From an uncultured Thermoplasmatales archaeon (lineage in GTDB: Archaea > Thermoplasmatota > E2 > DHVEG-1), in assembly GCA_964467345.1 (NCBI GenBank), contig CAYXPY010000004.1:17358-81357 (forward strand): a DNA stretch of 64,000 bases, read 5' to 3'. Below, one piece after another: positions 18,446 to 52,629 of this stretch (the stretch's first letter is position 1; every line of letters begins with the position of its first letter). The position numbers were made by a program, and so were the translations under genes. Below the pieces are notes generated by a model. That model searched no databases. It saw only the letters and a program-made list of their open reading frames with translations, and was not told the origin of the DNA.

Positions 18446-21400
18446 ATGACGAAAAAAAAGGAAGGTATCGGAGCAGTCGCTGTAATCGGTGGTGGCATCG
18501 CCGGTGTTCAGGCTGCTCTTGACCTCGCGGACATGGGATACAAAGTCTATGTCCTTGAGAAATCACCGACCATCGGTGGCGTGATGGCTCAGCTTGACAA
18601 GACGTTCCCAACAAATGATTGTTCCATGTGCATCCTGTCCCCAAAGCTTGTGGACTGCGCACGTCATCAGAATATAGAGATTCTTACGAATGCATACGTC
18701 GAGGGTGTCGAGGGGACCGCAGGAAATTTTACCGTCAAGGTTCTGAAAAAACCCAGATACATCGACATAGAGAAATGCACCTCGTGTGGGAGCTGTGAGG
18801 ACGTCTGCCCAGTTTCCCTTCCAAATGCATTTGAATACGGGTTGGTGAAACGCAAGGCAATCTACAAACCGTTTCCACAGGCAATCCCCAATGCCTATGT
18901 CATCGACAAGGAAGGCGACGGGAAGCATCGCGGCTGTGTCGATTGTATGCGCTGTGTCAAAGAATGTAAGTCTGGTGCAATTAACCATGACCAAAAACCA
19001 GAGCACGTGCGCTTTCAGGTCGGTGCGGTCATCATCGCTGCAGGTTCACCTCCCTTTGACCCGGTGATAAAACCGGAGTTCGGGTACAAGAAATTTAAAA
19101 ATGTGCTTACTAGCGTTGAGTTCGAACGAGTCCTGTCTGCCTCCGGACCCACACAGGGCAAGATCCTCCGACCAAGTGACCAGAAACACCCGATACGCGT
19201 CGCCTGGGTTCATTGTGTCGGATCCCGTGATGCATCAGTCGGTCATGAATACTGCTCCGCGATGTGCTGTATGTACACCGCAAAGGAAGCAATCATCGCC
19301 AAAGAGCATGCATATGATATCGAGCCGACCGTGTTCTATATAGATATCCGTTCCTATGGCAAGGATTTTGACAAATACATAGAGCGGGCGAAAAAAGACC
19401 ATGGACTCCGCTACGTCCGATCCAGGATCTCAGAGATAACTGAGGATCCAAAAACAAAAGACTTAATCATAAAATATGAGGATGATGCAGGGAACTTCAA
19501 AGAGGAGACATACAACCTTGTGGTCCTATCAGTAGGATTATGTGGTGCTGGTGAACGTCGTAACGAGCTACTGGACATCCTTGGTTTTGATGCTAATGAA
19601 TTTTTGTTTGTCCGAACAAGCCCCGAGGATCCTGTCGTAATCAAACCAGGGATTTTCGTGGCCGGTTCTTTCCTGGAGCCACAGGCAATCCCGGAGTCAG
19701 TGATGCAAGCTTCTGCTGCGGCTGCCAATGCAGCAGCTTTGCTTAAGGACTCACGAGGGACACTTGTTAAAGAAAAGGTGTACCCCGTGGAAAAGAACGT
19801 ATCAGCCGAGAAACCCAGAATAGGCGTATTCCTTTGTAACTGCGGCATTAACATAGGTGGGTACGTCGACGTAACCGCGGTCGCTGAGTATGTGAAATCA
19901 TTACCCGATGTCGCATTCGTCGAGACGAACGTCTACACCTGCTCAGAAGATACACAGAAGAAAATCGTTGACGCGATACAGAAACATGATCTGAACCGCA
20001 TCTTGGTTGCCGCCTGCACTCCCCGGACACATGAACCTTTGTTTCAGAAAAGTCTCCGGGACGCGGGTCTGAACCCCTATTTACTTGAGATGACGAACAT
20101 CCGGGAGCAATGCTCATGGGTTCATATGGATGAACCCGCCAAAGCTACCGAGAAGGCAAAACAACTGATCGCGATGACCGTTGCCAAGACCCGGTTTTTA
20201 CAGCCCATTCAGGAAGCAGAGATCCCAGTGATCCAAAAAGCACTTGTGATCGGCGGGGGTATCGCCGGGATGACTGCAGCCTTATCTCTTGCGGAGCAGG
20301 GATATGAGACGGTCCTAGTGGAAAAAGAACCAAGACTGGGTGGGTACCTCCATAAGGTGTACTACACCGTTGATGGTATGGACATCCCACGACTGCTCAA
20401 AGACACGACCGGGAAGGTCATGAGCCATCCGCTCATCAAGGTGCATCTCAGCTCACAGGTCAAATCGTTAAAAGGCTATGTCGGGAGTTATGACTCAACC
20501 ATCCAGACCCCGACAGACGAGGTATCGTTTTCCCATGGCGTCATCATCGTTGCCCTTGGTGCTGATGAATACAAACCACACACCTATCATTATAACAAGG
20601 ACCCGCGGGTATTAACCCAGTCAGAGCTAGAAAAAGACCTCAGTGTCCTAAAAAAAGAGGACATCCGGGATGGCGAGACGTTCGTCATGATCCAGTGCGT
20701 GGAGTGTCGTGATGAGAAACGACCATACTGCAGTAGAATCTGCTGTATGCAGGCAGTGAAAAACGCACTGAAAATCAAGGAGTTAAATCCACGTGCCGAG
20801 GTATTTGTCTTATACCGGGATCTGATGACCTACGGTTTTAAAGAAAAGTTTTACAAGGATGCCCGTGAGAAGGGTGTCATGTTTCTCCAGTACGACCCGG
20901 AGAAGAAACCAGAGCTTGAGGCAAAGAACGGTCTTGTGGTAAAGGTCCATGAACCGATGCTTGGAGAGCTGTTGAAGATTCCTACAGACCATCTCATCCT
21001 TTCAACAGGGTTACAACCGAACCCTGATAACCCGGTTATCGGAAAACTATTGAAGGTCCCTGTAAACGATGATGGGTTCTTCCTTGAGGCCCATGTCAAG
21101 CTCCGTCCGGTTGATTTTTCAACCCGTGGGGTGTTTGTCGCCGGGAACTGCCATGTCCCTAAGTTTATCAGCGAGTCCATTTATCAGGCGCAGGCTGCTG
21201 CTGCGCGTGCCGCGACAATCCTGTGCAAACCAACGCTGAAAGCAGAGCCAAATGTCGCCTGTGTTGACGATGATCTCTGCAGTGGCTGTGGTATCTGTAT
21301 CTCTGTTTGTCCCTATAACGCCATCGAACGGGTCGAGGAAGAAATCGATGGTAAAAAAATGATTCATGCGAGGATAAATGAGGGGCTCTGCCAGGGATGC

Positions 21401-21499
21401 GGCACATGCGTGAGTGCATGCCCCAGCAGCGCGATTCAGCAGCGGGGGTTCAAAGACGCACAACTTCTTCCGATGATTGATCAAATAACATCAGAATAA
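18446..21499 (+). CDS. 1017-aa double HdrA-like flavoprotein (N-domain-less HdrA unit + complete HdrA unit)
   Basis: Unit 1 has 'VAVIGGGIAGVQAALDLADMGYKVYVLE..QLDKTFPTNDCSMCIL' and 'CTSCGSCEDVCP'. Unit 2 begins with 'RIGVFLCNCGINIGG' and has 'ALVIGGGIAGMTAALSLAEQGYETVLVE' and C-terminal 'CSGCGICISVCP..CQGCGTCVSACP'. Confidence 0.8.
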   Translation: MTKKKEGIGAVAVIGGGIAGVQAALDLADMGYKVYVLEKSPTIGGVMAQLDKTFPTNDCSMCILSPKLVDCARHQNIEILTNAYVEGVEGTAGNFTVKVLKKPRYIDIEKCTSCGSCEDVCPVSLPNAFEYGLVKRKAIYKPFPQAIPNAYVIDKEGDGKHRGCVDCMRCVKECKSGAINHDQKPEHVRFQVGAVIIAAGSPPFDPVIKPEFGYKKFKNVLTSVEFERVLSASGPTQGKILRPSDQKHPIRVAWVHCVGSRDASVGHEYCSAMCCMYTAKEAIIAKEHAYDIEPTVFYIDIRSYGKDFDKYIERAKKDHGLRYVRSRISEITEDPKTKDLIIKYEDDAGNFKEETYNLVVLSVGLCGAGERRNELLDILGFDANEFLFVRTSPEDPVVIKPGIFVAGSFLEPQAIPESVMQASAAAANAAALLKDSRGTLVKEKVYPVEKNVSAEKPRIGVFLCNCGINIGGYVDVTAVAEYVKSLPDVAFVETNVYTCSEDTQKKIVDAIQKHDLNRILVAACTPRTHEPLFQKSLRDAGLNPYLLEMTNIREQCSWVHMDEPAKATEKAKQLIAMTVAKTRFLQPIQEAEIPVIQKALVIGGGIAGMTAALSLAEQGYETVLVEKEPRLGGYLHKVYYTVDGMDIPRLLKDTTGKVMSHPLIKVHLSSQVKSLKGYVGSYDSTIQTPTDEVSFSHGVIIVALGADEYKPHTYHYNKDPRVLTQSELEKDLSVLKKEDIRDGETFVMIQCVECRDEKRPYCSRICCMQAVKNALKIKELNPRAEVFVLYRDLMTYGFKEKFYKDAREKGVMFLQYDPEKKPELEAKNGLVVKVHEPMLGELLKIPTDHLILSTGLQPNPDNPVIGKLLKVPVNDDGFFLEAHVKLRPVDFSTRGVFVAGNCHVPKFISESIYQAQAAAARAATILCKPTLKAEPNVACVDDDLCSGCGICISVCPYNAIERVEEEIDGKKMIHARINEGLCQGCGTCVSACPSSAIQQRGFKDAQLLPMIDQITSE

Positions 21500-28508: not shown

Positions 28509-28582
28509 GGGCCTGTAGCTCAGCTAGGTAGAGCATCTGGCTTTTAACCAGGTGGCCAAGGGTTCGAATCCCTTCAGGCCCG
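28509..28582 (+). tRNA. tRNA-Lys (anticodon TTT)
   Basis: Folded by hand. The acceptor pairs gggcctg/caggccc, the D stem gctc/gagc, the anticodon stem tctgg/ccagg around loop cttttaa, and the T arm aaggg-ttcgaat-ccctt. The discriminator is g and no CCA is encoded. Confidence 0.85.
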
Positions 28583-28616
28583 CCTTTCCTCACAAGGAAC
28601 GTAGGAGGAATGTAAT

Positions 28617-28937
28617 ATCGCAGCCCCGCCAAAAAAATATTACGACATCTTAGGACATAAGCTGGTCCCAGAACATACTATTTTAACTGATAAAGAGAAA
28701 AAGGAGCTGTTGGAGACATACAATATTAAAACCGATCAACTCCCACGTATACTTGCAAATGATCCAGCAGTGATTTCCACAGGGGCGAAACCTGGTCAGA
28801 TTGTGAAAATAACACGGAAAAGCCCGACAGCCAAATATGCAATCGCATATCGATTGGTTGTTGAGAGCGATACCTCTGAGAGTTTTGTCTTCGCTGAACC
28901 GACTGAGGAATTCAGTAGCTCAAGCGAAGAGATGTAA
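28617..28937 (+). CDS. rpoH: RNA polymerase subunit H (Rpb5-like); start codon uncertain (no in-frame ATG)
   Basis: 'KLVPEHTILTDKEKKELLETYNIKTDQLPRILANDPAVISTGAKPGQIVKITRKSPTAKYAIAYRLVV' is present. The frame is open from 28605. Candidate starts are ATC at 28617 (AGGAGG 9 nt upstream) or TTG at 28710. Confidence 0.75.
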   Translation: MAAPPKKYYDILGHKLVPEHTILTDKEKKELLETYNIKTDQLPRILANDPAVISTGAKPGQIVKITRKSPTAKYAIAYRLVVESDTSESFVFAEPTEEFSSSSEEM

Positions 28938-28959
28938 CAGGGGATTATGAGGAGTATTT

Positions 28960-31900
28960 ATGAGAGAGCTTGTTGATGCGTTTTATAAAGAGCGAAGTAT
29001 TGTCAACCATCAGATCGCCTCCTATGATGATTTTTTACGACATCGTCTTCAGCGGATCGTCGATGGGACAATCATCGGTCAAGAAGAAGAAGGAATGAAA
29101 CGAGGGTACATCTACCCCGAGATTGAAGGCTACAAGATTAAATTCGGGAAAATCAAAGTAGGTCTCCCCCAGGTCAAAGAGGCAGACGGTACTGAACGTC
29201 CATTGACCCCCATGGAAGCGCGACTCAGGGATTTAACCTATGAGGCTCCGATTGAGCTGGAATTCATCCCGGTGAAAAACGAAGTCGAATATGAACCTGA
29301 GACGGTGCGTGTCGGAGAGCTACCCATCATGGTAAAGTCCCTCCGATGCAATATCTCCCATCGGGTTTTAGAAGAAAAAATGGACCGACCCCTCACCGAG
29401 GAAGAGTACCGCAAGGAACTGCAGCAGATGCAGGAGGACCCCTTGGACCCTGGCGGGTATTTTATCAGTAACGGTACTGAACGTGTATTGATCACCGTAG
29501 AAGATCTCGCCCCAAACAGGGTTCTTGTCGAACGATCAAGTCGGTACGGAACCGACGTTGAAGTCGCTAAAGTGTTCTCCCAGAGGGAGGGATACCGGGC
29601 GTTAACCGTGGTTGAAAAACGAAAAGACGGTATGCTCATGGTTAGTCTCCCCACCACCTATGGTCAAATCCCACTGATTGTGTTGTTACGCGCATTAGGG
29701 ATGGAAAACGACAAAGAAATCGTCGATGTCATCTGCGTGGACCCGAAGATGGAACCCTACGTTCTGGCTAACATCGAGGAATGCGCAAAGGAATACAGCA
29801 TCGCAACAAAAGAGGAGGCAGTCGCATATCTTGGGAAGAAATTCGCAGGTGGTCAGGCTAAGGAATACCGGGTGAAACGTGTCGAGACCATCATGGACCG
29901 ACATCTCCTTGCCCATCTCGGTAATGACCCTGAAGACCGATTGAAAAAAGCGATTTTCGTCGCTCGTATGGGAATGGCAGTCCTGGAGCTTGCATTAGGA
30001 AAGCGAGAGCAGGACGACAAGGACCATTATGCGAATAAGCGTCTGAAGCTTGCCGGGGATCTCATGGAGGACCTCTTCCGGGTCGCATTTACCGCATTAT
30101 GCAAGGACCTCAAATATCAAATTGAACGGATCCATGCGAAAGGAAAAGAAATCAAGATAGCATCATCATTACGTTCCGATGTGCTCAGCCAACGAATACA
30201 CCACGCGCTTGCCACAGGAAACTGGGTCGGCGGTCGTGCAGGTGTCTCACAGCTTCTGGATCGAACCAGCAATCTTGCGGTTCTGAGTCATTTACGACGA
30301 GTCACATCTCCCTTAACAAGGTCACAGCCACATTTCGAAGCTCGTGATCTGCATTCAACACAATGGGGACGTCTCTGCCCCAATGAAACACCCGAAGGAC
30401 CAAACTGCGGCCTTGTCAAAAACCTTGCATTAACCGTCGAAATCTCAGAGGGATTCGGAGAAAAAGAAGTCGAAGCAGTCCTACGGGAACTCGGGATCAA
30501 AGAGTTAACAAAACATGTCACTGGAGCCCGTGTGTATCTCAATGGAGACCTCATCGGGATGCATCAGAACGGCGCTGACCTTGTCAAAAAACTCCGGGAA
30601 AGACGACGACGAGGGATGCTGAGCAATGAAATCAATGTCACCTACGACATCGAAGGAAACGATGTTATTGTCAACTGTGACTGCGGTCGATTAAGACGAC
30701 CACTGCTTGTTGCTGAAAACGGAAAACCTCTGTTAAACCAAAAGATACTCATTGACCTAAAGGAATCAAAGAAAAAATGGACTGACCTTATCAACGATGG
30801 AATCGTCGAGTACATCGATGCAGAAGAAGAGGAAAACGCGCTCATTGCATTACGCGAAGAGGACCTCACATCAGATCATACCCACATGGAGCTTGACCCA
30901 ATGTGCATCCTTGGGATCGGTGCATCACTTGTTCCCTACCCAGAGCATAACTCCTCACCGAGGATTACCATGGGCGCAGGTATGGGAAAACAATCACTTG
31001 GTTTTGGGGCATCAAACTACCGTATCAGACCAGACACCCGAGGTCATCTCCTTCATTACCCACAGATGCCTCTGGTTCAGACACATCCCATCCGCTATAT
31101 CAAATTCAGGGAGCGACCCGCAGGGCAGAACTACATTGTCGCAGTCGCCTCGTTTCAGGGATATAACATGGAAGATGCATTGATTATGAGCAAGTCAGCG
31201 ATTGAACGCGGACTTGGTCGTAGTACATTTGTCCGGACCTACAGCAGCGAGGAGAAACGATACCCCGGTGGTCAGGAGGATCATTTTGAGATCCCCAACC
31301 CGGATTGCCGAGGCGTCCGTAGCGAAGAAGCATACAACAACCTTGGCGAAGACGGGTTGATTTCCCCCGAATGCACTGCAAATGGTGGAGACGTACTGAT
31401 AGGCAAGACATCACCACCTCGATTTCTTGAGGAACCAACAGATTTTCTGACACCACAGAAACGCAGGGAAACCTCAGTCACCGTCCAACATGGAGAAGGC
31501 GGTGTTGTCGACAAGGTCATGCTGTCAGAGTCAGTTAACGGGTCCCGAATGGTGAAAATAAAAGTCCGGGAGCAACGCATTCCTGAGCTTGGTGATAAAT
31601 TTGCTTCAAAACATGGTCAGAAAGGGGTCGTCGGATACGTGGTATCCGCAGAAAACATGCCCTTCACCGAAGATGGTATGTCCCCTGATTTAATCATCAA
31701 CCCTCATGCCATCCCCTCAAGGATGACTGTTGCCCATGTGCTTGAGATGATCGGCGGTAAAGTCGGCTCACTTGAAGGACGAATCGTCGATGGGACTGCT
31801 TTTAGCGGCGAACCAGAAGACCAGCTGCGATCCGCTCTGATACGGAATGGATTCAACCATGCAGGAAAAGAAATCTTCTATGACGGCCTTACAGGACGAC

Positions 31901-32325
31901 CATTGGAATGTGAAGTGTTCGTCGGATGCATCTATTATCAGAAACTCCATCACATGGTCGCCGGTAAAATCCATGCACGATCACGAGGACCCGTGCAGAT
32001 CCTTACCAGACAACCCACTGAAGGACGAGCCAGGGAGGGTGGTCTACGGTTCGGAGAAATGGAACGAGACTGCCTCATTGGTCATGGTGCATCGATGGTG
32101 ATCAAAGACCGTCTCCTGGATGAATCAGATATCACGATGAAATACGTCTGTAACACCTGTGGTCATATCGCGATGATTGATCGTCATGGGCGGTTACATT
32201 GCTCTATCTGCGGTGACAAGGCAGATATCCACCCGGTGGAGATGAGTTACGCATTCAAACTATTAATCGATGAGTTGAAATCACTTGTGGTGGTGCCACG
32301 GATTAAGCTGGAGTCATTGGTGTAG
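28960..32325 (+). CDS. rpoB: RNA polymerase subunit B, unsplit (1121 aa)
   Basis: It is full length with conserved blocks 'GQKGVVG', '[10 protein letters not shown]' and the C-terminal Zn motif 'CNTCGH..CSICG'. There is no B''/B' split. Confidence 0.95.
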
Positions 32326-32337
32326 GGGGTTAGAAAA

Positions 32338-35004
32338 ATGGCGGGACGAAGTATCACAAAAAAAATTGGGGCGCTTGAATTTTCAGTATTATCACCAAAT
32401 GAGATTCGCAAGATGAGTGCGACAAAGGTGATTACCGCTGATACATATGATGATGATGGGTTTCCAATCACGATGGGGCTGATGGATCAACGTCTCAGTG
32501 TGATTGAACCTGGTCTGCGGTGTAAAACCTGCGGGCTTAAGGTAGGAAAAGACAAATGCCCAGGGCATTTCGGGCATATCGACCTTGCAATGCCCGTCAT
32601 CCATGTCGGGTTTGTCAAGACCATCCGGAACTGTTTACGAGCGACTTGTCGGAAATGCGGACGAATCATGCTTTCTGAAAAAGAATTAGAAGAACATCGA
32701 AAGACCATCATAAAAAACAACAACGAGGGACGCGACAACGCCTATATCTTCAAGATGATCATCAGCACCGCGACAAAGACAGAAGCATGTCCACGATGCG
32801 CAGCGATGAGCGGGAAGATCGATCTGGATAAACCAACCTCTTTCCGCGAAAACGGTAAAAAACTCACCCCAACGGAGATCCGGGAGTGGCTTGAGAAAAT
32901 CCCTGATGAGGACCTCCCGTTACTTGATATTAATGTTCAGTCAGCACGACCGGAATGGATGGTTCTTACCGTGTTGCCAGTACCACCGGTCACTGTTCGA
33001 CCATCGGTCACCCTTGAGTCTGGTGAACGATCAGAGGACGATCTGACCCATAAACTTGTTGATGTGATAAGAATCAACCAGCGGCTTCAGGAGAACCGTG
33101 ACGCGGGAGCACCACAGTTAATCGTCGAGGACCTCTGGGAGTTGCTGCAGTATCATGTGACGACCTACCTGGACAATCAAACCTCAGGTATCCCACCTGC
33201 AAGACATCGTTCGGGTAGACCCCTGAAGACACTAGCTCAACGGTTAAAAGGAAAAGAGGGCCGATTCCGTAGCAATCTATCTGGGAAACGAGTGAATTTC
33301 TCCGCACGAACGGTGATTTCCCCAGATCCAAACCTCAGCATCAACGAAATCGGTGTCCCCGCAGAGATAGCACGGGAGCTGACCATCCCGGTACGGGTCA
33401 CGACACAGAACCTGGAATGGTGCAAAAATCTTATCAAACAAACTGCACAACCAGGAAAACCCGGGGAACACTACCGGCCGCATGTGAATTATGTAAAACG
33501 ATACCGTGAGGGGGTAGAACAACGCATGAAGGTCACAGAGAAAAACGCTGATGACATCGCTGAGAAACTGGAGCTTGGTTTTATCATCGAACGGCAGTTG
33601 ATGAACGGGGATATCGCCTTGTTCAATCGTCAACCATCGCTGCATCGGATGTCGATGATGGCCCATCGTATCAAAGTGATGCCGAACCGGTCCTTCCGAT
33701 TCAACCTTTCTGTCTGTCCCCCGTATAACGCTGATTTCGATGGCGATGAGATGAACCTGCATCTCCTCCAGGGAGAAGAGGCGAAAGCTGAGGCTGAGAT
33801 CCTGATGAAAGTCCAGGAGAACCTGATGTCACCACGTTTCGGTGGGGTCATCATCGGGGGCCTGCATGACCATATCTCTGGCTGTTTCCTTCTCACCTAT
33901 AAAGACAAGACATTCTCAAAAGAGAAAACCTCTGAGATCCTCTCGACGTTCAAATACAAAGGGAAGTTCCCTGAGGTCCATGAGCTCAACGGACAGAGCG
34001 TGGTGTACGGGAGAGACATCTTCAGCGTGTTGCTTCCAAAAGACCTTACGCTTGAATATAAGGCTAAGGCCTGTTACCACTGTGAAGTCTGCAAAGCCGC
34101 AGAATGCCCCTATGGCGCGTATGTTGTTGTGAAGAACGGGAAGTTGAAACAAGGAATTGTCGATGAGAACAGCATCGGGTCGTTCAAAGGTAGGATTGTC
34201 GAAAGAATCATCCGGGACCATGGGACGGCTGCCGGCAGGATATTCATCGATGATGTCACCAGACTAGGTATCGCGGTGGTGACCGTGATCGGGTTTACCA
34301 CAAGCATTGACGATGAGGACATCCCTACCGAAGCGAAACGTCAGATCGGGGAAGGACTGCAGAAAGCACAGAACAAGATCAACACTCTAGTCACTGCCTA
34401 TGAGCATGGTGAGCTGGAATCACTCCCGGGTCGAAGTCTGGAAGAAACCTTGGAGATGGAGATCATGCGAGTCACCGGGCGAGCCAGAGACATGGCTGGT
34501 GAGATAGCAAGTAAATACCTCGGATTGAACAACAGCGCCGTCATTATGGCGAAATCTGGTGCCAGGGGGTCCATGCTGAACCTCTCGCAGATGTCCGGAT
34601 GTGTCGGGCAGCAGGCGGTCAGAGGAGAACGAATCTCCCGTGGGTATAAATATCGGACGTTACCGCATTTCAAAAAAGGGGACCTGGGGGCCAGTGCAAA
34701 AGGCTTTGTTGCAAATAGTTACAAAAGTGGGTTAAACCCCACCGAGTACTTCTTCCATTCAATGGGAGGAAGAGAAGGTCTGGTCGACACCGCAGTCCGT
34801 ACATCCCGTTCAGGATACATGCAACGTCGTCTCGTCAACGCCCTTGAAGACCTCAAGGTCGAAAACGACGGGACCGTGCGACACACCGGTGGTGAGATCA
34901 TCCAGTTCCGATATGGTGATGATGGAGTCGACCCGACACGGAGCACAACCGGTAAAGCAGTAGACCTCGACCGTATCATCTATGATGTAAAGCAGGAGGG
35001 ATAA
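32338..35004 (+). CDS. rpoA1: RNA polymerase subunit A'
   Basis: It has the Zn motifs '[15 protein letters not shown]' and the catalytic '[12 protein letters not shown]'. Confidence 0.95.
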
Positions 35005-35008
35005 GCCG

Positions 35009-36451
35009 ATGGCAAAACTGTTCTCAAAAAAGAAACCTGCACCTAAGAAACCTCTAAAGAAGCCTGCCGCGTCAAAAACAAAAAAACCAAGCGAAAAGCC
35101 GACGGTGAAAAGTAAAACCGCGCAACCTAAGAAACAACTCATAAAAACAAAAACTACTGTGGAAAAGAAAAAACCAAAAGAGACAAAGAAAAAGATTGTT
35201 GAGGTCGAGAAAAAAATAGAAAAAAAGAAAGAGCCGGAACGGACATTTCTCCCTCCACCAAAAAAATTAGACGAAGAACCAAAGGAATATAAACCGATAC
35301 GAGCAGACATTCAGAAGCTGCTGAAAAATCACTTCCTCCCTGTTTCTGTTATCGATGGAATCGTCGAACGAACAGCAAAGGATAAAGCCCTGCAGGGAAA
35401 ACTGAAAAGTATCGTCGAAAAAGCCCTCGAGGAGTACGCAAAAAACCGAATCGACCCCACCGAAGCCTGTGGTATGATCAGCGCACAAAGCATCGGTGAG
35501 CCAGGAACCCAGATGACGATGCGTACCTTCCACTACGCGGGTGTCGCAGAAATCAATGTCACCCTGGGGTTACCGCGGTTAATCGAGATCGTGGATGCAC
35601 GGTCTACCCCCTCGACACCAATGATGAACATCTACCTGCGGGATGAATATCGAATCAACCCGGATCTTGCAAAAGAGATCGCAAACAAAATAGAGATAAC
35701 AAGGCTTACCGATGTCGCCGACATCGAGATGGACCTGATTAACATCATCATCTTTATCAAACCAAACAAAAAGACGATGGAGAAGAAAGGAATCACTATT
35801 GATGATCTCTTGGAGCGCATCCAATCGCTTCGGAAGCTATCTGCTAAAGTTGAGAAAGAATCTATCAAAGTGACCTTGGATGAACCGGGGTACAAAGTGC
35901 TGCAGAACACCAACGAGACTCTGAAGAACCTGAAGATAAAAGGGATCGATGGGATCAAACGTGTCATCATACGAAAGGAGCCAAACGAAGGCTACGTGAT
36001 TTATAGCGAAGGCAGCAACCTTAAGGAAGTCTTAGATATCGAAGGTGTTGATCCGTACCGAACCACCACAAACGACATCCATGCGATCGCACGGGAGCTT
36101 GGGATTGAAGCAGCGCGCAACATGATCATCCAAGAGGCATATGCCACGCTTTCAGAACAGGGGTTAAACGTTGATATGAGACATATCATGCTCGTGGCTG
36201 ATGTGATGACTGCTGATGGGACGGTCCGGGCAATCGGTCGTCATGGGGTGAGTGGGGAGAAAAGCAGTGTACTGTCACGTGCAGCCTTTGAAATCACCGT
36301 CAATCATCTGCTGCTGGCCAGCCAGCGGGGTGAATCCGATGAGCTGAACGGTGTGGCAGAGAACATCATCGTTGGTCAACCAGTAAACCTAGGCACAGGT
36401 GCCATTGAACTTGTGATGAATCCAAAAAAACCAAAACAGAAGGGAAAGTAA
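35009..36451 (+). CDS. rpoA2: RNA polymerase subunit A'' carrying a ~95-aa lysine-rich N-terminal extension
   Basis: The conserved core runs from '[11 protein letters not shown]' through '[17 protein letters not shown]'. It is preceded in frame by '[43 protein letters not shown]...KKKEPER'. It starts 5 nt after the A' stop. Confidence 0.9.
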
Positions 36452-36754
36452 ATGGTAGACGTAAACAAAGTATTAAAGGATGTATCGAAGAAAGGAAAAA
36501 TCATGATCGGAGAGAAACAGACGAAAACCGCAATTCAGAAAGGGACTGCAAAACTGGTGGTTGTAGCAGCGAACTGCCCAGACAAAAAAACCATCACAAC
36601 CCTCGCAAACGACCAGAAGATACCGCTGTTCAGCTATCAATCCACTGGCGTCGACCTTGGGTATTCCTGTGGGAAGAACTATTCAGTCTCCTGCCTTGCC
36701 GTGCTTGAAGAAGGAGAATCAAATATCCTGCAGCTTGTCAAGAAAAGGAACTAA
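36452..36754 (+). CDS. rpl30e: 50S ribosomal protein L30e
   Basis: It is 100 aa with 'GKIMIGEKQTKTAIQKGTAKLVVVAANCP'. Confidence 0.85.
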   Translation: MVDVNKVLKDVSKKGKIMIGEKQTKTAIQKGTAKLVVVAANCPDKKTITTLANDQKIPLFSYQSTGVDLGYSCGKNYSVSCLAVLEEGESNILQLVKKRN

Positions 36755-36759
36755 CTACA

Positions 36760-37185
36760 ATGGCAGAGATAATTCTTTCAAACGAGACGGTCCAGTGTAT
36801 TAATCTTGCTTCGAAGTATTCCGGGGCAGGCATCAGAGACTGTATCGTTGAGGATGACCGTGTTGTCTTCATCGTCGAGAAAGGGCAACTAGGGATAGCG
36901 ATAGGGAGCAAAGCTAAGAACCTGGAGAAACTGCGATTGCTTTTTAAGAAAAACGTCAAATTCGTCGAGTTCGATGACGATAAAACAAGGTTTGTCATGA
37001 ACCTCTGTAAACCCTATGATATCAAGAAGGTCAGTTTCGAGGGAAACGACGAGGCAAGCGTCGCTCGGGTAGAGGTCAACCCGAAAGACAAGTCAAAATT
37101 AATCGGAAAAGGTGGACGAAACATCAACTTGATTCGGAAGATGGCTCAACGCCATCATCAGATAAAAGATGTCCAGATAGTCTAA
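36760..37185 (+). CDS. nusA: archaeal NusA homolog (two KH domains)
   Basis: It is 141 aa with 'IGSKAKNLEKL' and 'IGKGGRNINLIRKM' GxxG KH motifs, and follows rpl30e as in the canonical operon. Confidence 0.8.
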   Translation: MAEIILSNETVQCINLASKYSGAGIRDCIVEDDRVVFIVEKGQLGIAIGSKAKNLEKLRLLFKKNVKFVEFDDDKTRFVMNLCKPYDIKKVSFEGNDEASVARVEVNPKDKSKLIGKGGRNINLIRKMAQRHHQIKDVQIV

Positions 37186-37228: not shown

Positions 37229-38707
37229 TTGCAGGATGATAGGGGGCTAAGTGTGCGCATACGAGCTCATCCTATTATTGATTTTCAGAAACGAAAAAAA
37301 CTTCCGTTCTACTTCCAGAAAAAAAAGGTCATAGGTGAGCAGGGGGACACCATTGCCTCGGCGTTACACGCGGCGGGAGTCCGAACCCTTACCACGAGCC
37401 TTAAATACGAAAGCCCTCGAGGGTTTTTCTGCGGGATCGGGAAATGCTCCTCCTGTCTGATGCGCGTAAACGGCATCCCGAATGTCCGGACGTGCATCGC
37501 ACCGTTACAAGAAGGTATTTTCGTCGAAATGCAAGAGAAACTCGCGGAGTTGCCAAATGTAGCCTTTTCAGGAGAGCCAACAAAAACAGTAGATATCGAT
37601 GTCCTGATCGTTGGTGCAGGCCCCGCTGGTCTTTGCGCGGCAATCGAGAGTGCGACACAAGGGGCTTCGGTGTTACTTGTTGATGAAAACCAATGTGTCG
37701 GAGGTCAATTGGTCAAACAAACCCATAAATTCTTCGGCTCGAAACAAGAACGTGCTGGAACACGTGGGATTCACATAGCAAAAGAACTAGAACAGGAGCT
37801 ACAAAACCTGCAACAGCAGGGGAAAATCCAGCTGATGACCGATGCGACAGTCATCGGGTATTACGAAAGTGAACGAAAACATCGATTCGGTGTCGTGAAA
37901 CGCTGCGAGTACCAAAGCACGTTGTATGATGTCCGTTGTGACGCGGTGGTCCTAGCCTGTGGCGCGATGGAGAACATGCTGCTGTTCCCAGGAAACGACC
38001 TCCCTGGTGTGTATGGTGCTGGCGCGGTGCAGACGTTGATGAATGTCTATGGAGTCAAACCAGGGAACCGAGTTCTGATGGTAGGAGCAGGCAATGTCGG
38101 CCTTATTGTCTCCTATCAGCTTTTACAAGCTGGAATCGCTGTGGACCGGGTCGTAGAAGCAGCACCCACCATCGGAGGATACAACGTACATGCCGCTAAA
38201 CTACGTCGATGCGGAGTACCTATCTATACATCCCATTCCATTAAGGAAGTCTATGGAGACAAAAAGGTAGAAGGAGCCGTTGTCGTAAGACTTGATGAAC
38301 ACTGGAGGCCTATTACGGGAAGCGAAGAGAACGTTGCATGCGACACGATCTGTCTTGCTGTAGGATTAACCCCCTCGACACGGTTGCTCTCTCAGATAGG
38401 AGCGACCTTAGAATTCATCCCGGAGGCAGGTGGGTATGTCGCAGTCCATGATGCATCGATGCAGACCTCAGTCAAAGGAGTCTATGTCGCAGGCGATGCA
38501 TCCGGTATCGAGGAAGCATCAACCGCGATGATCGAAGGTAAAATCGCTGGTCTCGCAGCAGCAATCCAGCTGGGTCGGTCTAAGAACAAAAAACTGCTTG
38601 AAGCGTATCGAGAAGAACTTTCACAGCTGCGGGCAGGTCCGTTTGGCGAGAAACCACGGATAGCGAAAGAAAAAATAGCAAAGCACGCAGAGGTGCACCA
38701 TGCGTGA
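37229..38707 (+). CDS. dye-linked proline dehydrogenase / opine-oxidase alpha-like subunit (2Fe-2S domain + FAD/NAD(P) oxidoreductase; PdhA/HcnB/SoxA-like)
   Basis: 'GDTIASALHAAGV..FFCGIGKCSSCLMRVNG..RTCIAP' is a 2Fe-2S domain, followed by 'VLIVGAGPAGLCAAIESA' and 'VLMVGAGNVGLIVSYQL' Rossmann motifs. Confidence 0.65.
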   Translation: MQDDRGLSVRIRAHPIIDFQKRKKLPFYFQKKKVIGEQGDTIASALHAAGVRTLTTSLKYESPRGFFCGIGKCSSCLMRVNGIPNVRTCIAPLQEGIFVEMQEKLAELPNVAFSGEPTKTVDIDVLIVGAGPAGLCAAIESATQGASVLLVDENQCVGGQLVKQTHKFFGSKQERAGTRGIHIAKELEQELQNLQQQGKIQLMTDATVIGYYESERKHRFGVVKRCEYQSTLYDVRCDAVVLACGAMENMLLFPGNDLPGVYGAGAVQTLMNVYGVKPGNRVLMVGAGNVGLIVSYQLLQAGIAVDRVVEAAPTIGGYNVHAAKLRRCGVPIYTSHSIKEVYGDKKVEGAVVVRLDEHWRPITGSEENVACDTICLAVGLTPSTRLLSQIGATLEFIPEAGGYVAVHDASMQTSVKGVYVAGDASGIEEASTAMIEGKIAGLAAAIQLGRSKNKKLLEAYREELSQLRAGPFGEKPRIAKEKIAKHAEVHHA

Positions 38708-39167
38708 ATATGAGAAAACCGGTATCCTGTCCTTAAAAGATCTTCAGATACCGACAAAGAAACAACTCGAGAAAGGCGTCGCAATCCTTGAATGTGTCCA
38801 AGAGATACCCTGCAACCCTTGTGTGGACTCCTGCCCGGTTCATGCGATTTCCATGAAAGACATCAACGCCCCCCCGGTGAATGATTTTGACAAATGCATC
38901 GGGTGTACGAAATGCGTTGGGGTATGCCCGGGGTTGGCGATTTTCGTTGTGAAGGTAAAAGGTGACAAAGCATGGGTGACGCTTCCCTACGAATTTGTCC
39001 CAGAACCGAAAAAAGGAACCATAGTTAAAGCATTAGACAGGACCGGGAACGTCCGGGGAAACGCACTTGTCACAAAGGTGATAAAACAGGGAAAAACACA
39101 TGTGGTGACCATTGAACTTGAAAGTGGCTTAGCCATGGATATCAGGAACATAAGGGTTGAGGTATGA
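38700..39167 (+). CDS. 4Fe-4S dicluster ferredoxin-like subunit (PdhF-like)
   Basis: 'CNPCVDSCPVHAI' and 'CIGCTKCVGVCPGLAI' are present. Confidence 0.55.
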   Translation: MREYEKTGILSLKDLQIPTKKQLEKGVAILECVQEIPCNPCVDSCPVHAISMKDINAPPVNDFDKCIGCTKCVGVCPGLAIFVVKVKGDKAWVTLPYEFVPEPKKGTIVKALDRTGNVRGNALVTKVIKQGKTHVVTIELESGLAMDIRNIRVEV

Positions 39168-39436
39168 AGCGAAGCATTGTATGCCGATGTGAGGATATCA
39201 GTGAAGAGGATGTCATTCAAGCGATTGATGAGGGATACATCGATATCGAGGAGCTGCGAAAGAAACTCCGGATAGGCATGGGTCCGTGTCAAGGACGTGT
39301 CTGCATCCAGTTGGTCGCCCGTATCCTTGAACGAAAAACCGGTAAGAAAATAAGCAAAATCCCGCTTCCAACCGTACGACCACCGCTGGTTCCTGTCTCC
39401 CTTGGAACACTGGCTAGTGAGAAAGATGAAAAGTAA
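39164..39436 (+). CDS. BFD-like [2Fe-2S]-binding small subunit (PdhX/HcnA-like)
   Basis: 'CRCEDISEEDV..MGPCQGRVC' is present in a 90-aa product. Confidence 0.5.
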   Translation: MKRSIVCRCEDISEEDVIQAIDEGYIDIEELRKKLRIGMGPCQGRVCIQLVARILERKTGKKISKIPLPTVRPPLVPVSLGTLASEKDEK

Positions 39437-40574
39437 GGCAGATGTCGTCATCATAGGAGGCGGAGTGAATGGCTGCTCTCTTGCATATCATCTGGCTAAA
39501 AAAGGCCTAGAGGTCGTTCTCGTCGAGAAAAACTATCTGTCCTCGGGTGCCACCGGAGCGTGCGGTGCAGGAATCCGCCAACAATGGTCCACTCGGGAGA
39601 ACGCGTCCCTTGCGATTCAAAGTGTGAAGATTTTTGAGGGGTTAAACAAGGAACTTGGTCAGGATATCGAGTTTCGCCAAGGTGGCTATCTCATCGCAGT
39701 CCATGATAAAGCAGAGATGAAACAAGCCGAAAAGAACGTCGCGATGCAGAGATCCCTTGGCTTGAAGGTTGATATCTTACAGCCTGATGAGATTACCAAG
39801 ATAGTCCCCATCCTTGACGTGAAAGGAATGAAGGCTATTGGTGCGACGTTTTGCCCAACCGATGGCCATGCCAACCCGTTCAAGACCACGTTTGCGTACG
39901 CGGATGCGGCACGAAGGAATGGCGCTGAGATATATACCCATACGAAAGTCATCAGTCTGAAGGCAACGAAAAAATCGATTCGTTCTGTCGTAACAGATCA
40001 GGGAACGATCCAAGCAGATGCCGTGGTAAATGCTGCTGGAATCGACTCAAAAGCAATCGCAGAATTGGTAAAGATAAAACTACCTCTTGCCGCGTATCGA
40101 AAAGAAATAATGGCTACTGAGCGATTAGAACCCCTTTTTGAGGCTATGGTGATTTCCTTTAAAGATGGGATTTACTTCAGTCAGCAGAAGGAAGGTCAAA
40201 TCGTTGGTGGCATCCCGATTCCTGAAGAAAAAGAAGGATATAAGACGACTCCAACATTTGTCTTTTTGCAGCATATGGCGCACACATTAACAAGATATGC
40301 TCCTGTTCTCAAACACGTGAACCTTTTGCGGCATTGGACCGGGTTTTATGATGTCACCCCCGATGCTCGTCCCATTCTTGGCGAGGCAAAAGACGTAAAA
40401 GGATTTATTCAATGCAACGGCTTCAGCGGCCATGGATTTATGATATCACCGATGGTATCAAAACTGCTTACCGATCTGATCGTCGAAGGGAAAACCACTG
40501 ATGTCCTTGAAAGCCTCAATCTTGATCGTTTCAAAGGCAAGAAAATCGAAAAGGAACTCTCCGTGGTCGGGTGA
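39426..40574 (+). CDS. FAD-dependent proline/amino-acid dehydrogenase beta subunit (sarcosine oxidase beta / ThiO / DadA family)
   Basis: 'DVVIIGGGVNGCSLAYHLAKKGLEVVLVEK' is a GxGxxG FAD motif. The start is set at the ATG at 39426. The ORF-track start at 39402 is a TTG. Confidence 0.7.
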   Translation: MKSKADVVIIGGGVNGCSLAYHLAKKGLEVVLVEKNYLSSGATGACGAGIRQQWSTRENASLAIQSVKIFEGLNKELGQDIEFRQGGYLIAVHDKAEMKQAEKNVAMQRSLGLKVDILQPDEITKIVPILDVKGMKAIGATFCPTDGHANPFKTTFAYADAARRNGAEIYTHTKVISLKATKKSIRSVVTDQGTIQADAVVNAAGIDSKAIAELVKIKLPLAAYRKEIMATERLEPLFEAMVISFKDGIYFSQQKEGQIVGGIPIPEEKEGYKTTPTFVFLQHMAHTLTRYAPVLKHVNLLRHWTGFYDVTPDARPILGEAKDVKGFIQCNGFSGHGFMISPMVSKLLTDLIVEGKTTDVLESLNLDRFKGKKIEKELSVVG

Positions 40575-47621: not shown

Positions 47622-47710
47622 CCCGCCTTAGCTCAGTCTGGCTGGAGCGGCCGGCTGTAGACTCTATGGCCGTTACCGGCAGGTCCCCGGTTCAAATCCG
47701 GGAGGCGGGA
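47622..47710 (+). tRNA. tRNA-Tyr (anticodon GTA) with a 14-nt intron after position 37
   Basis: Folded by hand. The acceptor pairs cccgcct/aggcggg, the D stem gctc/gagc, and the anticodon stem gccgg/ccggc. The loop is ctGTAg followed by the intron 'actctatggccgtt' and then a. The T arm is cccgg-ttcaaat-ccggg. Confidence 0.75.
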
Positions 47711-49591: not shown

Positions 49592-50971
49592 ATGAGATAT
49601 AACAGAGTAGAAAAAACATTGTTGATTGTATTGCTTCTTCTATTCAGTGGGGTTAGTGTGAGTCCTGCGCAGTCAACACAGATGAAAAACAGTGCACAAA
49701 ACCGGGAAGGTTTTCTGCTCTATGTTGGTGGTTCTGGCCCGGGTAATTATAGCAAGATTCAGGATGCGATTGATAATGCATCAGATGGTGACACCGTTTT
49801 TGTGTATGATGACTCATCACCCTATCATGAGAATATCGTAATTAGAAAATCAATTTACCTAATGGGGGAAGAAAGGCAAACAACAATAATTGATGGAAAA
49901 AAAAGTTGTAAGGTAATGACAGTGTTTGCTAACAATGTGACCATCACGGGATTTACGCTTCGTAATAGCGGAGTGTTGGTCATCGATTGTGCCATTGAAT
50001 GTCGTTCAAGTCATAACAAAATCTCAGGCAATATTATATCGAATAATTCCCAAGGTATCTGCTTCTACACCATCGGTTCATATGTTGCCAACAACAATAA
50101 CATCACTGGAAATATGATAACATCCAATAAGGGACCAGGCGTCTACCTATATCAATCTCAAAATAACATTATCTCTGGGAATACCTTTTCTTCGAATGAA
50201 GGTTTAATCCTTGATCAATCGTATGATAACACTATCTCAAATAATGAGTTTAGCAATGATGGCATCGTGTTAAACAGCTATCCGAACAATATTCTTCCAG
50301 ACAATTACGTCAACGGAAAACCCCTCATTTATATGGTGAGTGAATCAAATAAGATACTCGATACCGCAGGACAAATCATTCTCATTGATTGTTATAACAT
50401 TACCATTCGACAGCAAGACCTCTCAAACACCACCACGGGTCTGACTCTTCTTAGGACAAACAATTGTCATATCGAACGAAACAAGATGACGAATAACTGT
50501 AACTTTGGAATTAATCTTTTTGAATCAAATGAGAATAATATCTCATTGAATCGTATTGCAGATAATGATGCAGGGCTACAGGTTACCTCCTCAGAGAAAA
50601 ATACCATTATATGGAACATTATTCGTTTGAATCCATACTGGGGTATTGAACTTCGCGGGTCAAATAATAATGTCATCTCGACAAATATCATAGAAAAGAA
50701 CGGTGGGAGAAAGTTAGTAGAATATGGGTTGGGACTCTTCCTTGCGTCTTCATCGAATAACAGTATTATTCACAACAATTTCCTCAAAAATGCACGGGAT
50801 GCCTATTTCTATGAAGCATATTCAACTGAGTGGAATAGTAACTATTGGAGTAGACCAAGAATATTTCCAAAAATAATTCCTGGTGAAATAAAGGGAACTC
50901 TTTTTGATAGGCGCATTAACATCGATTGGCGTCCTTCTAAAACACCCTATGAGTTACCCGAGATGATTTGA
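49592..50971 (+). CDS. secreted right-handed parallel beta-helix (PbH1/NosD-like) repeat protein, paralog 1
   Basis: It has a signal peptide and the conserved 'LYVGGSGPGNYSKIQDAIDNASDGDTVFVYDDSSPYHENIVI' block. Many 'N-x-I-S-x-N' turns follow, and the C-terminus is 'NYWSRPRIFPK..DWRPSKTPYELP'. Confidence 0.65.
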   Translation: MRYNRVEKTLLIVLLLLFSGVSVSPAQSTQMKNSAQNREGFLLYVGGSGPGNYSKIQDAIDNASDGDTVFVYDDSSPYHENIVIRKSIYLMGEERQTTIIDGKKSCKVMTVFANNVTITGFTLRNSGVLVIDCAIECRSSHNKISGNIISNNSQGICFYTIGSYVANNNNITGNMITSNKGPGVYLYQSQNNIISGNTFSSNEGLILDQSYDNTISNNEFSNDGIVLNSYPNNILPDNYVNGKPLIYMVSESNKILDTAGQIILIDCYNITIRQQDLSNTTTGLTLLRTNNCHIERNKMTNNCNFGINLFESNENNISLNRIADNDAGLQVTSSEKNTIIWNIIRLNPYWGIELRGSNNNVISTNIIEKNGGRKLVEYGLGLFLASSSNNSIIHNNFLKNARDAYFYEAYSTEWNSNYWSRPRIFPKIIPGEIKGTLFDRRINIDWRPSKTPYELPEMI

Positions 50972-51213
50972 AACAAGAATAAAATCAGAACACACACGGA
51001 TTTTATTTATTACAATATTCCTAAATAATTTCAATATAAACTAATGTACTCAAAATAACTATTATCCCCAGAGATATATTTCGTTCCCCGACATATCAAA
51101 TAAAATACTATCTATATTCAAGGATTAACACAAAAGTTGAGGTAAATTTATCTATAAGAAAAATCATGTTATTTCGTAACAGGATTTTGGCGGTTTTTAC
51201 CTTTCTAAATACA

Positions 51214-51410
51214 ACCTTTCGTTGCAGTCCCTCCGTCGGCTCCATTTCCTATTTTTTCTCCTGTTAAACACCGTTAAAACCACGATATCAGAAATCGGCT
51301 TTTGACCCCTTTAATCATAAAATCGTGATTTACTATTTACACGAAAAATTTTGTTATAAATCGTGTTACAGCTTTCCTTCATGTGGAGGGGAACGAATTT
51401 GAACTCGTGT
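51214..51410 (+). repeat. att-like repeat copy A1 (hairpin 'aacctttcgtt' + tRNA-Thr 3'-end core 51229-51244 + ~165-nt conserved leader ending in T-arm-like motif at 51395)
   Basis: It aligns by eye to the copies at 48864, 52854, 54693, 55365 and 57416. The conserved block is 'tttcctattttttctcctgtt..cagaaatcggcttttgacccctttaatc..acgaaaaattttgtta'. Confidence 0.7.
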
Positions 51411-51477
51411 TTACCGGTTAAATTCTAAATAGGAGATAATAATTACTCATGTAAGAGCCTACAATTTCAGATGGTTT

Positions 51478-52629
51478 TCAGGTTATCCCTGGGAAGTCAT
51501 AGGGTTCTTGTGCAGGATGCCAATCAAATTGTATGAAGTCAGGAAAAACTTGATAAAAATTCTCTATTCCAAAGATTAGTTTCGGTAGAATCCGTGGTCT
51601 GCCCCAATAGTTCTGATCCCAAATGGTCTGTGAACTGTCTTCGTTGTTGAATCGTGCATGAACTTTATTGTTCATGAATGTATTCATAGAGATTTTTGAA
51701 AAATAGGAATCCTCAATGATGATGCCGCATCGATAATTGCTAATGATATTTTTTTCAATGCGAGTATCACGATTTCCGTCTGTGAGATGTATCCCTATCA
51801 CTTTCTGAATATTTTCAAAACTTGTCCCTGGAGGATTATCAATGACATTTGATATAATAGAATTATTTAATGTAAAACCTTCCATATAGATAGCCCTTGA
51901 ATTGTTAAAAAAATAATTATTCGATATGGTATTGTAACTTGATTGTATAATTCTCAATCCATCACGTTGAGAATTAATTGTATTGTTCGATATTCTGCTA
52001 TATGAAGCATGGTATAGAATAATACTTGAACCACTGCGTTCAACAGATTTTATTTGATTATCAGAAAAAGTACAATAGGACGTCCAATCCAGATTAATAT
52101 TCGAAGAATAATATGTATCAAAAGTATTTTGAGTAATGGTACAGAAATCACATTCATAAAATTCAATTAAAATGCTGATAGTTCCCTTGAATATATTATC
52201 AGAAACTGTCACATTTTGTATCGGTAGATAGTTGTTTGAGATAAGTGTACTGTAATTCCTTTCTGAAAATATTGTGAACCCTGAAATAGTTATATTATTG
52301 CTTTGGATGGAGATTTGGGTCTCATATTCTGAAGTCAAACCTTCTATAATCGTAGTGTTTTTTGATTCTCCAATGAGTCGGATGGCTGTTGGAATAACAA
52401 TTGCTTCAGTGTACAATCCGCTGTAGACAAATACAGTATCCTCATCATGAGAATCATTTATTGCATCCTGAATCCTTGTATAGTTACTTGGACCTGAACC
52501 ACCGACATAGAGCCAATTGCCTTTTGATGTTGGTAACGTTGGTTTTTCAATATCCTGTGCAATCACCGGAATGATACAGGTTGTAATGAAAAGAAGACTG
52601 ATTTCGACCGCCAAATATTTCCTTTTCAA
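51478..52629 (-). CDS. secreted parallel beta-helix repeat protein, paralog 2
   Basis: 'WLYVGGSGPSNYTRIQDAINDSHDEDTVFVYSGLY' is present, with a C-terminal 'NYWGRPRILPK..DWHPAQEPYDFP'. Confidence 0.65.
   Translation of the reverse strand: MKRKYLAVEISLLFITTCIIPVIAQDIEKPTLPTSKGNWLYVGGSGPSNYTRIQDAINDSHDEDTVFVYSGLYTEAIVIPTAIRLIGESKNTTIIEGLTSEYETQISIQSNNITISGFTIFSERNYSTLISNNYLPIQNVTVSDNIFKGTISILIEFYECDFCTITQNTFDTYYSSNINLDWTSYCTFSDNQIKSVERSGSSIILYHASYSRISNNTINSQRDGLRIIQSSYNTISNNYFFNNSRAIYMEGFTLNNSIISNVIDNPPGTSFENIQKVIGIHLTDGNRDTRIEKNIISNYRCGIIIEDSYFSKISMNTFMNNKVHARFNNEDSSQTIWDQNYWGRPRILPKLIFGIENFYQVFPDFIQFDWHPAQEPYDFPGIT

Follow-up and report, generated by a model that had tools for sequence, protein, structure and literature searches.

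Archaeal RNA polymerase (RNAP) is usually viewed as a fixed, Pol II-like core of 11–13 subunits, and to our knowledge Rpo13 is the only known lineage-specific extra of this enzyme that contacts DNA. Here, we describe the gene for the A'' part of the RNAP large subunit (rpoA'', product RpoA'' or Rpo1C) in a 64,000-nucleotide stretch of contig CAYXPY010000004.1 (GenBank assembly GCA_964467345.1, an uncultured Thermoplasmatales archaeon), referred to below as the window. The protein opens with a lysine-rich, low-complexity extension, to which an earlier note made from the sequence alone had drawn attention. The reading that we favor, with a probability of about 0.55, is that this extension is a genuine, translated, disordered cationic tail, which represents the clade-specific form of an add-on to A'' in Thermoplasmatota and acts as a non-specific DNA tether.

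Rpo13 resembles the A'' tail in being a disordered, lysine-rich appendage of an archaeal RNAP, with 11 lysines among its last 22 residues. It was proposed as an RNAP–DNA stabilization factor (PMC3479171; PMC2675907), and its lysine-rich C-terminus, placed at the end of the downstream channel, is a non-specific binder of double-stranded DNA (dsDNA; PMC3479171). Rpo13 is, however, a separate 104-aa subunit found in Crenarchaeota only, and its helix-turn-helix core sits between Rpo5 and the clamp head, whereas the tail extends A'' itself at the N-terminus, is 4–7 times longer, lacks a folded core and occurs in Thermoplasmatota. The two share no sequence relationship. The C-terminal domain of the bacterial RNAP alpha subunit (alpha-CTD) is likewise a DNA-binding module carried on a flexible linker from core RNAP, but it sits on alpha rather than on beta'/A'' and belongs to another domain of life. 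Moreover, alpha-CTD is a folded helix-hairpin-helix (HhH) module that reads UP elements and contacts activators, whereas the tail is unfolded and presumably non-specific.

Outside the polymerase, actinobacterial topoisomerase I, also an essential DNA enzyme, ends in a low-complexity extension that is made of lysine repeats and specific to the lineage; this domain stabilizes the enzyme–DNA complex and raises processivity, and in Streptomyces TopA it is the lysine repeats that give the enzyme its processivity (PMC5714199). The enzyme is nevertheless a different one, the extension is C-terminal and bacterial, and there is no homology. The tails of linker histone H1 and HMG proteins and the PAKK repeats of mycobacterial HupB share with the A'' tail a K/P/A-rich composition, KKP/PKK motifs and disorder, and electrostatic DNA binding is predicted for the tail as well. 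The tail lacks an H15 winged helix, an HMG box or an HU domain (no Pfam hit) and is carried by a polymerase instead of an architectural protein. The histone-like character proposed in the earlier note thus stands for composition (35% K, 14% P, five KKP motifs) and falls for kinship with H1 or HMG, there being no such Pfam domain and no S/TPKK motif in this tail; across 106 relatives, S/TPKK motifs average 0.17 per tail. The tail is unrelated to H1, HMG and Rpo13, and at most it would work 'like' their tails.

Identity and extent of the RpoA'' extension

The gene, its conserved part and the upstream sequence that bears on its start are listed below, with related loci denoted by L numbers throughout.

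35009–36451, + strand: rpoA''/Rpo1C open reading frame (ORF), 480 aa
35300–36451, + strand: canonical A''/Rpo1C core, aa 98–480 (TIGR02389, PF04998), holding the trigger-loop motif, the basic C-terminal end and the stop codon
32338–35004, + strand: rpoA' (Rpo1N), 888 aa, from the ORF list; the identical L081 gene matches Pfam RNA_pol_Rpb1_1 to Rpb1_5
35002–35004, + strand: rpoA' stop codon TAA
34995–35000, + strand: GGAGGG Shine-Dalgarno-like sequence within the last codons of rpoA', separated from the ATG of rpoA'' by 8 nt

The assignment of the core is firm. The A'' equivalog model TIGR02389 scores 498.6 bits against a cutoff of 420.65, with residues 110–471 covering model positions 2–367 of 367, and Pfam PF04998 (RNA_pol_Rpb1_5) falls on residues 117–420 with 170.5 bits. 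Solved archaeal Rpo1C chains (391–397 aa) align from query residue 106–132 to the end (E = 1e-102 to 1e-109). The best solved-chain match of the core is 36ro_C (2.9e-109), and the trigger-loop region aligns with 36ro_C, 4qiw_C and 36rp_C (E = 1e-104 to 1e-109). Four independent sequencing runs yielded assemblies with the identical A'' protein, which rules out an assembly artefact as the source of the tail. At the other end of the protein, residues 472–480 (36422–36448, + strand) also form a short basic tail, in which K476, K478, G479, K480 and position 474 reach at least 90% conservation across the clade; the A'' proteins of Thermococcus and Pyrococcus likewise end in basic residues.

Residue 20 of the Sulfolobus Rpo1C pairs with query residue 106, and the A'' proteins of Methanosarcinales and Archaeoglobi begin 0–5 residues ahead of the position matching query residue 97. 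Because the canonical A'' start points align near residue 97, the extra N-terminal part amounts to ~93–97 aa. This agrees with the ~95-aa lysine-rich extension claimed in the earlier note, whose quoted start matches the translation of the 480-aa ORF. The note's author knew of no such extension in characterized A'' subunits, and none is present in the solved chains of Sulfolobus, Saccharolobus, Thermococcus and Pyrococcus.

Residues 1–97 contain 35% K, 14% P and 11% E, compared with 8% K in the core. The tail bears a net charge of +23 (35 K/R vs. 12 D/E), with about +22 contributed by its first 64 residues, and holds five KKP and three PKK motifs. Its most lysine-rich stretch of 30 residues contains 14 lysines, against at most nine in any other window ORF that reaches 100 aa. 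None of these ORFs includes another strongly lysine-rich segment, and a genome-wide habit of lysine-rich tails is not seen in the ~50 other genes of the window. Unusual lysine codon use was rejected as well, since AAA accounts for 23 of the 34 lysine codons of the tail (68%), compared with 70% genome-wide. Poly-A slippage was rejected because the A-runs of the tail do not exceed 7 nt and such runs are common in the window.

Evidence for translation of the tail

The lysine-rich tail of A'' is almost certainly translated. The stop codon of rpoA' is followed by 4 nt (GCCG), and the ATG of rpoA'' at 35009 starts at the fifth base past the stop, just as the earlier note had read it. In ~65 of the 74 related loci in which both genes could be placed, A'' starts at −8 to +8 nt relative to the A' stop, the exceptions being a few ambiguous calls and one N-masked locus, and in most related loci an equivalent of GGAGG precedes the coupled start. 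The distance from the A' stop to the conserved core is 221–439 nt in the clade, whereas it lies between −10 and +10 nt for most Methanosarcinales and Archaeoglobi.

No suitable start codon lies further inside the gene. The absence of an in-frame ATG between the start and the core, as pointed out previously, holds up to codon 150. The non-ATG internal start raised in the earlier note found no support: the only in-frame alternatives ahead of codon 150 are two GTG codons (33 and 51), which have no Shine-Dalgarno-like sequence and are not conserved in relatives. Between codons 51 and 150, ATG, GTG and TTG are all absent, leaving no start codon within 45 codons of the core. The extensions of L013 (108 codons) and L015 (95 codons) contain no internal start codon at all, and no positionally conserved internal start was found across the relatives.

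The tail also evolves like a protein. Its frame has no stops in 97 codons, whereas five interrupt each of the other two frames of the + strand; among mononucleotide shuffles, just 0.5% remain open. In all 14 complete clade loci, the frame remains open despite many indels, which are exclusively in-frame. Non-synonymous divergence (pN) was 0.23–0.26 for the whole tail, 0.32–0.36 for its spacer and 0.09–0.13 for its last third, against a synonymous divergence (pS) of 0.65–0.8 (about 0.75 alongside the spacer). As synonymous sites were saturated in all available pairs, pN and pS are given in place of the ratio of non-synonymous to synonymous substitution rates (dN/dS).

The alternative, in which translation begins near the conserved core and the 290 nt upstream are an intergenic spacer, is exceedingly improbable. 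Two GenBank records do give a 380-aa A'' (KYK22038.1 of SM1-50 and PNX47609.1 of M11B2D). The SM1-50 model (L002:3310), the one short model examined, begins at an ATA (Ile) codon without a Shine-Dalgarno sequence and looks forced by homology; for the genes behind both records, other callers give 482–483 aa. The lack of start codons, the conserved coupling to the A' stop and the protein-like evolution of an always open frame speak against this alternative in the same way. Since homology-guided start calling has trimmed the tail in at least two GenBank records, such extensions are under-counted. The earlier note had allowed that the extension might prove ubiquitous and already annotated in this lineage; it is indeed clade-wide, and many GenBank and IMG records include it within A'', though without comment.

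An antisense ORF of 166 aa, rich in Phe (34810–35310, − strand), was rejected as a gene and regarded as a mirror artefact of the AAA/AAG-rich strand. One reverse frame over the tail region is free of stops, and it is the sense strand that is conserved as A'' in all relatives. Rfam detected no RNA family in or near the tail region.

Modular organization and predicted disorder

To describe conservation within the tail, 106 distinct extensions were collected from close relatives whose cores are 82–100% identical; per-residue figures refer to 74 sequences. Three modules can be distinguished.

35009–35089, + strand: module 1, aa 1–27, conserved lysine motif MAKPxxKKKxxxKKxxxKKPxKxxKPK (consensus of 106 extensions)
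35090–35200, + strand: module 2, aa 28–64, hypervariable K/P/T/S/A-rich spacer, which keeps its composition but not its sequence or length
35201–35299, + strand: module 3, aa 65–97, conserved polyampholyte (mixed-charge) junction, marked by residue conservation and low pN

In module 1, M1 is invariant and K7, K8, K13, K17, K18 and K25 are at least 90% conserved. Within the close subclade, mean pairwise identity drops to 0.42 over aa 13–64, compared with 0.68 in the adjacent core. Module 3 contains four invariant residues (P82, P84, K86 and E90) and six that are at least 90% conserved (E75, E77, R78, P83, E93 and K95); this junction is likely the part seated on the polymerase surface. Across the 106 tails, length ranges from 87 to 165 aa and net charge from +14 to +50, with 27–42% K, at most 5% R and at most 4% aromatic residues. 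As read from these alignments, selection acts on the composition and the motifs of the tail.

The disorder prediction suggested in the earlier note placed the tail on the disordered side of the charge–hydropathy plot, with a mean hydropathy of 0.33 against a Uversky boundary of 0.50. AlphaFold modeling based on the 74-sequence alignment returned residues 1–93 as coil (predicted local distance difference test, pLDDT, 29–49) and the first helix at residue 94, within a low-confidence model. According to these predictions, the tail is probably intrinsically disordered. Pfam reported no family at E ≤ 1 for residues 1–131. A phmmer search with the tail alone against 1.84 billion representative sequences returned two matches, both of them fragments or chimeras of the same A'' gene; there is no evidence of the tail on other proteins or as a stand-alone gene.

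Distribution across Thermoplasmatota

The lineage of the window is the Thermoplasmatota group of 'Thermoplasmatales archaeon SM1-50', which we take to be Marine Benthic Group D (MBG-D). Extension types were mapped on a neighbor-joining tree of the A'' cores of 78 loci. The lysine-rich clade comprises the window, L001–L008, L011–L013, L015 and L026, with tails of 72–146 aa and no HhH; its cores have diverged to 66–72% identity, and every complete member carries the tail. In total, more than 100 distinct MBG-D/SM1-50-like sequences possess it. The alignment with orthologs proposed in the earlier note thus shows that the extension is not unique to this genome, as the 106 clade extensions attest, while its absence from outgroups, which have 0–5 residues at the A'' N-terminus, is borne out.

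Beyond this clade, a different type of extension occupies the same place. The next clade on the tree (L017–L029) and Methanomassiliicoccales have extensions of 82–350 aa that open with a common domain of ~55 aa (MAKKDTxxALxxRGIxxxxAxKL). Canonical HhH repeats often follow this domain, and a basic linker always does. Overall, the add-on, which the A'' subunits of most Thermoplasmatota carry, consists in other lineages of one to four HhH domains, a basic linker and a short conserved junction. Pfam HHH_5 was detected in the extensions of L017 (81.1 bits), L052 (106.5 bits) and L072 (33.8 bits) above the cutoff of 27, and the L052 extension reaches 23.5 bits with RNA_pol_A_CTD, the family of the bacterial alpha-CTD, just under the cutoff of 23.8. 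The ~55-aa N-domain was modeled as a five-helix bundle with a pLDDT of about 80, and its best fold matches are the N-terminal domain of Rad51/Dmc1/RadA and the (HhH)2 domains of ERCC1, UvrC and FAAP24, with a template modeling (TM) score of ~0.66. The cultured Methanomassiliicoccus luminyensis (A'' of 483 aa) and Ca. M. intestinalis have the HhH-type form. A full-length query of the Methanomassiliicoccus type found HhH-type A'' proteins where the N-domain profile had failed; against a set of 5.8 billion proteins, that profile returned 10 short fragments only, of no taxonomic use.

The two types agree in their insertion point, the tight coupling of A' stop and A'' start, a length of ~100 aa, a basic linker, the junction motif of L017 and L023, and membership of the same phylum-level clade of the A'' tree. 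They differ in that the HhH type has a folded five-helix domain of ~55 aa, in some cases with two or three further canonical HHH_5 units, whereas the tail is lysine-rich throughout. No HhH was found in the query tail, either by Pfam or with the profile of the HhH-like N-domain. The linker of L019–L025 is itself lysine-rich, with up to 18 lysines in 30 residues. The junction motif [VLI]PPPxxxEEP is common to the lysine-rich clade and the HhH-bearing L017 and L023; a degenerate form (IPAP/IPEP..EEPE) occurs in L021 and L029, and looser ΦxΦPxKxP..E versions are found in Methanomassiliicoccales.

Several observations extend this picture. In L041 (2557–2973) and L044, the linker between the HhH-like domain and the A'' core is acidic, with D/E runs, so linker charge is not uniformly constrained across the phylum. 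Extensions of 280–350 aa in L056 (1940–2776), L059 (1987–2997), L061 and L072 (1921–2973) include an extra region of ~150 aa without a Pfam match (e.g., GFIWTAP...VWPCKFYVNLKR...), a further domain fused to RNAP. The protein P0125, a GenBank 'hypothetical protein, partial' of a Thermoplasmata archaeon, is a partial A'' N-terminus with an HhH-like domain followed by PKKA/APKK repeats that closely resemble mycobacterial HupB or H1 tails; it is annotated as hypothetical because its contig ends before the A'' core.

On the tree, the clade with lysine-rich tails only is nested inside HhH-bearing Thermoplasmatota. Its nearest sister pair, L016 and L018, has just 11–12 residues at this position, which implies either secondary loss or independent gain. 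L050, labeled as Thermoplasmatota, is likewise essentially devoid of an A'' extension (11–12 aa). From the sequences we infer that an HhH-plus-linker add-on was probably ancestral to much of Thermoplasmatota and that the lysine-rich clade kept, or re-expanded, the basic arm only.

The same history could have left a largely functionless remnant, i.e., a linker that survived the loss of HhH and was lengthened by replication slippage along an A-rich stretch, its disorder and surface exposure making it tolerable. Fast evolution of the middle, variation in length (87–165 aa), the ready expansion of low-complexity AAA/AAG tracts and the loss of the extension in L016 and L018 without apparent harm would all suit this explanation. 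We consider it quite unlikely, given that all complete clade members retain the tail in spite of core divergence, that lysine fraction and positive net charge are held within narrow bounds, that pN stays below pS even in the middle, and that conservation reaches at least 90% in both the N-terminal lysine motif and the junction.

Proposed function as a DNA tether

We hypothesize that the tail acts as an electrostatic DNA tether. The folded HhH part is absent from the lysine-rich clade, and in the proposed scheme the basic segment would have become a lysine-rich tail of 72–165 aa. The conserved junction would fix this tail to the enzyme surface where A'' begins. The matching point in Rpb1 would be where its 'foot' region is split, beneath the downstream-DNA channel and on the shelf side. 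The first 64 residues, with a charge of roughly +22, could then serve as a flexible clamp or tether that holds duplex DNA electrostatically and without sequence specificity. Such a tether would raise the general affinity of RNAP for duplex DNA, and this higher affinity may help promoter search and stabilize initiation and elongation complexes. The idea gains indirect support from the HhH domains that sister Thermoplasmatota carry at the same position. Two precedents favor it as well, since experiments have demonstrated such a role for the lysine-rich tail of Sulfolobus Rpo13 (PMC3479171) and for the lysine repeats of actinobacterial topoisomerase I (PMC5714199).

For the placement of the N-terminus, we take the trigger-loop histidine (query H175) to be Rpb1 H1085, which puts residue ~97 at roughly Rpb1 1000–1010. 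This region is presumably the 'foot' of the shelf module in the nomenclature of Cramer et al. 2001, below the downstream DNA channel. From residue ~97, a disordered arm of 60 residues, with a contour length of up to ~200 Å, could reach DNA.

A number of points weigh against a DNA tether derived in this way. For lysine-rich, disordered tails, RNA and acidic proteins are no less likely targets than DNA, and HhH modules can also bind protein, as the AR domains of NusA do. The fold matches of the N-domain have E values of 0.4–3, which are non-significant, and SAM domains are also among them. The tail may be a regain after loss instead of a remodeled HhH linker, and the absence of an extension from L016 and L018 makes the add-on evidently dispensable in some lineages. 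The placement of the A'' N-terminus depends on Rpb1 domain nomenclature and on an offset in the trigger-loop alignment. Finally, because the A'' model as a whole is poor (mean pLDDT 48.6), the coil call of AlphaFold lends weak support.

Binding to RNA is the first of two other functions to be considered: the tail might hold or chaperone the nascent transcript, or link RNAP to the ribosome or to RNA processing. The computed features do not separate DNA from RNA binding, as 35% K, disorder and a net charge of +23 are equally typical of ribosomal-protein tails and RNA chaperones, and the gene neighborhood is one of information processing (exosome, L30e, NusA). In known structures, however, the A'' N-terminus would lie far from the RNA exit channel; sister lineages hold HhH or (HhH)2 domains at the same position, with closest folds that are mostly duplex-DNA binders; and the Rpo13 precedent bound dsDNA with no detectable binding of single-stranded DNA (PMC3479171). 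On this evidence, a role in RNA binding appears unlikely.

Alternatively, the tail could be a platform for protein interaction or regulation, by way of acidic partners (e.g., chromatin proteins or transcription factors), RNAP clustering or condensates, or a switch operated by lysine acetylation or methylation. The position-specific lysines (residues 7–25) and the mixed-charge junction resemble short linear motifs, and the acidic linkers of L041 and L044 indicate that the sign of the charge is not universally constrained in the phylum. In addition, a tail lysine of the Sulfolobus solfataricus Rpo13 is methylated, according to the Rpo13 paper (PMC3479171). A platform nonetheless seems quite unlikely: no partner is apparent, the HhH domains of relatives point to nucleic acid, and a hypervariable middle in which composition alone is kept fits non-specific electrostatics better than specific docking.

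Returning to the DNA tether, a broader proposal can be made more tentatively. Rpo1C may possess a previously undescribed, phylum-wide, DNA-contacting appendage, which would take the form of (HhH)2 in most lineages and of a histone-tail-like polylysine arm in MBG-D/SM1-50, and would work as an archaeal counterpart of the bacterial alpha-CTD or of Rpo13. We regard this as possible, though doubtful at present.

Operon setting and other features of the window

The A'' gene lies directly downstream of rpoA' in an rpoH–B–A'–A'' operon, and this arrangement is kept in about 70 related loci. The operon and its remaining genes are as follows.

28710–37185, + strand: RNAP operon as a whole (ORFs; Pfam on identical genes)
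28710–28937, + strand: rpoH
28960–32325, + strand: rpoB, unsplit
36452–36754, + strand: L30e
36760–37185, + strand: NusA-KH

A tRNA-Lys(UUU) gene (28509–28584, + strand) heads the operon, 125 nt ahead of rpoH; its position before an operon with a lysine-rich A'' is probably a coincidence. After NusA, the usual continuation of the archaeal RNAP operon (S12–S7–EF2) is absent. Right after NusA, at 37229–40574 (+ strand), there is a four-gene set resembling sarcosine oxidase/opine dehydrogenase, which encodes Fer2_4 plus Pyr_redox_2, a small Fe-S protein, a 90-aa protein and DAO.

Further away, a cluster resembling heterodisulfide reductase/Mvh (8277–21499, + strand) includes an MvhD/FlpD subunit and two fusion proteins of 1505 and 1017 aa with multiple Pyr_redox_2/FAD and 4Fe-4S modules. 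An 89-nt tRNA at 47622–47710 (+ strand), detected by Rfam (51.7 bits) and missed by ARAGORN, is likely an intron-containing archaeal tRNA. The region 49592–63991 encodes four NosD/beta-helix paralogues, a CBM96+PKD protein and a C25 (gingipain-like) peptidase of 1199 aa. This gene set fits the protein-degrading lifestyle reported for MBG-D archaea, and the gingipain-like peptidase at the window end makes the MBG-D placement a fitting one.

Significance of the A'' add-on

Lineage-specific accretions to RNAP large subunits and lysine-rich DNA tethers are already known kinds of feature; the add-on to A'' of Thermoplasmatota is apparently undescribed. The literature searched, in which few subscription-journal papers were covered and absence is therefore not proof, held no description of an N-terminal extension of A''/Rpo1C in Thermoplasmatota, and a 2024 survey of RNAP domain architectures makes no mention of this add-on.

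Together, our results indicate that the phylum appears to have added a DNA-binding module to the RNAP large subunit and that one abundant sediment clade appears to have exchanged this folded module for a polylysine arm of ~100 residues. The phylum-wide pattern of HhH and polylysine on Rpo1C is of more interest than the single tail. The idea can be approached experimentally through the cultured M. luminyensis and the existing recombinant systems for archaeal RNAP. If it is true, the appendage would contact flanking or chromatin-wrapped DNA and thereby influence promoter choice, open-complex stability or passage through chromatin, and the lysine arm might also be tunable by acetylation or methylation. 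Archaeal RNAPs would then, like bacterial ones, adjust their general affinity for DNA through the accretion of domains.

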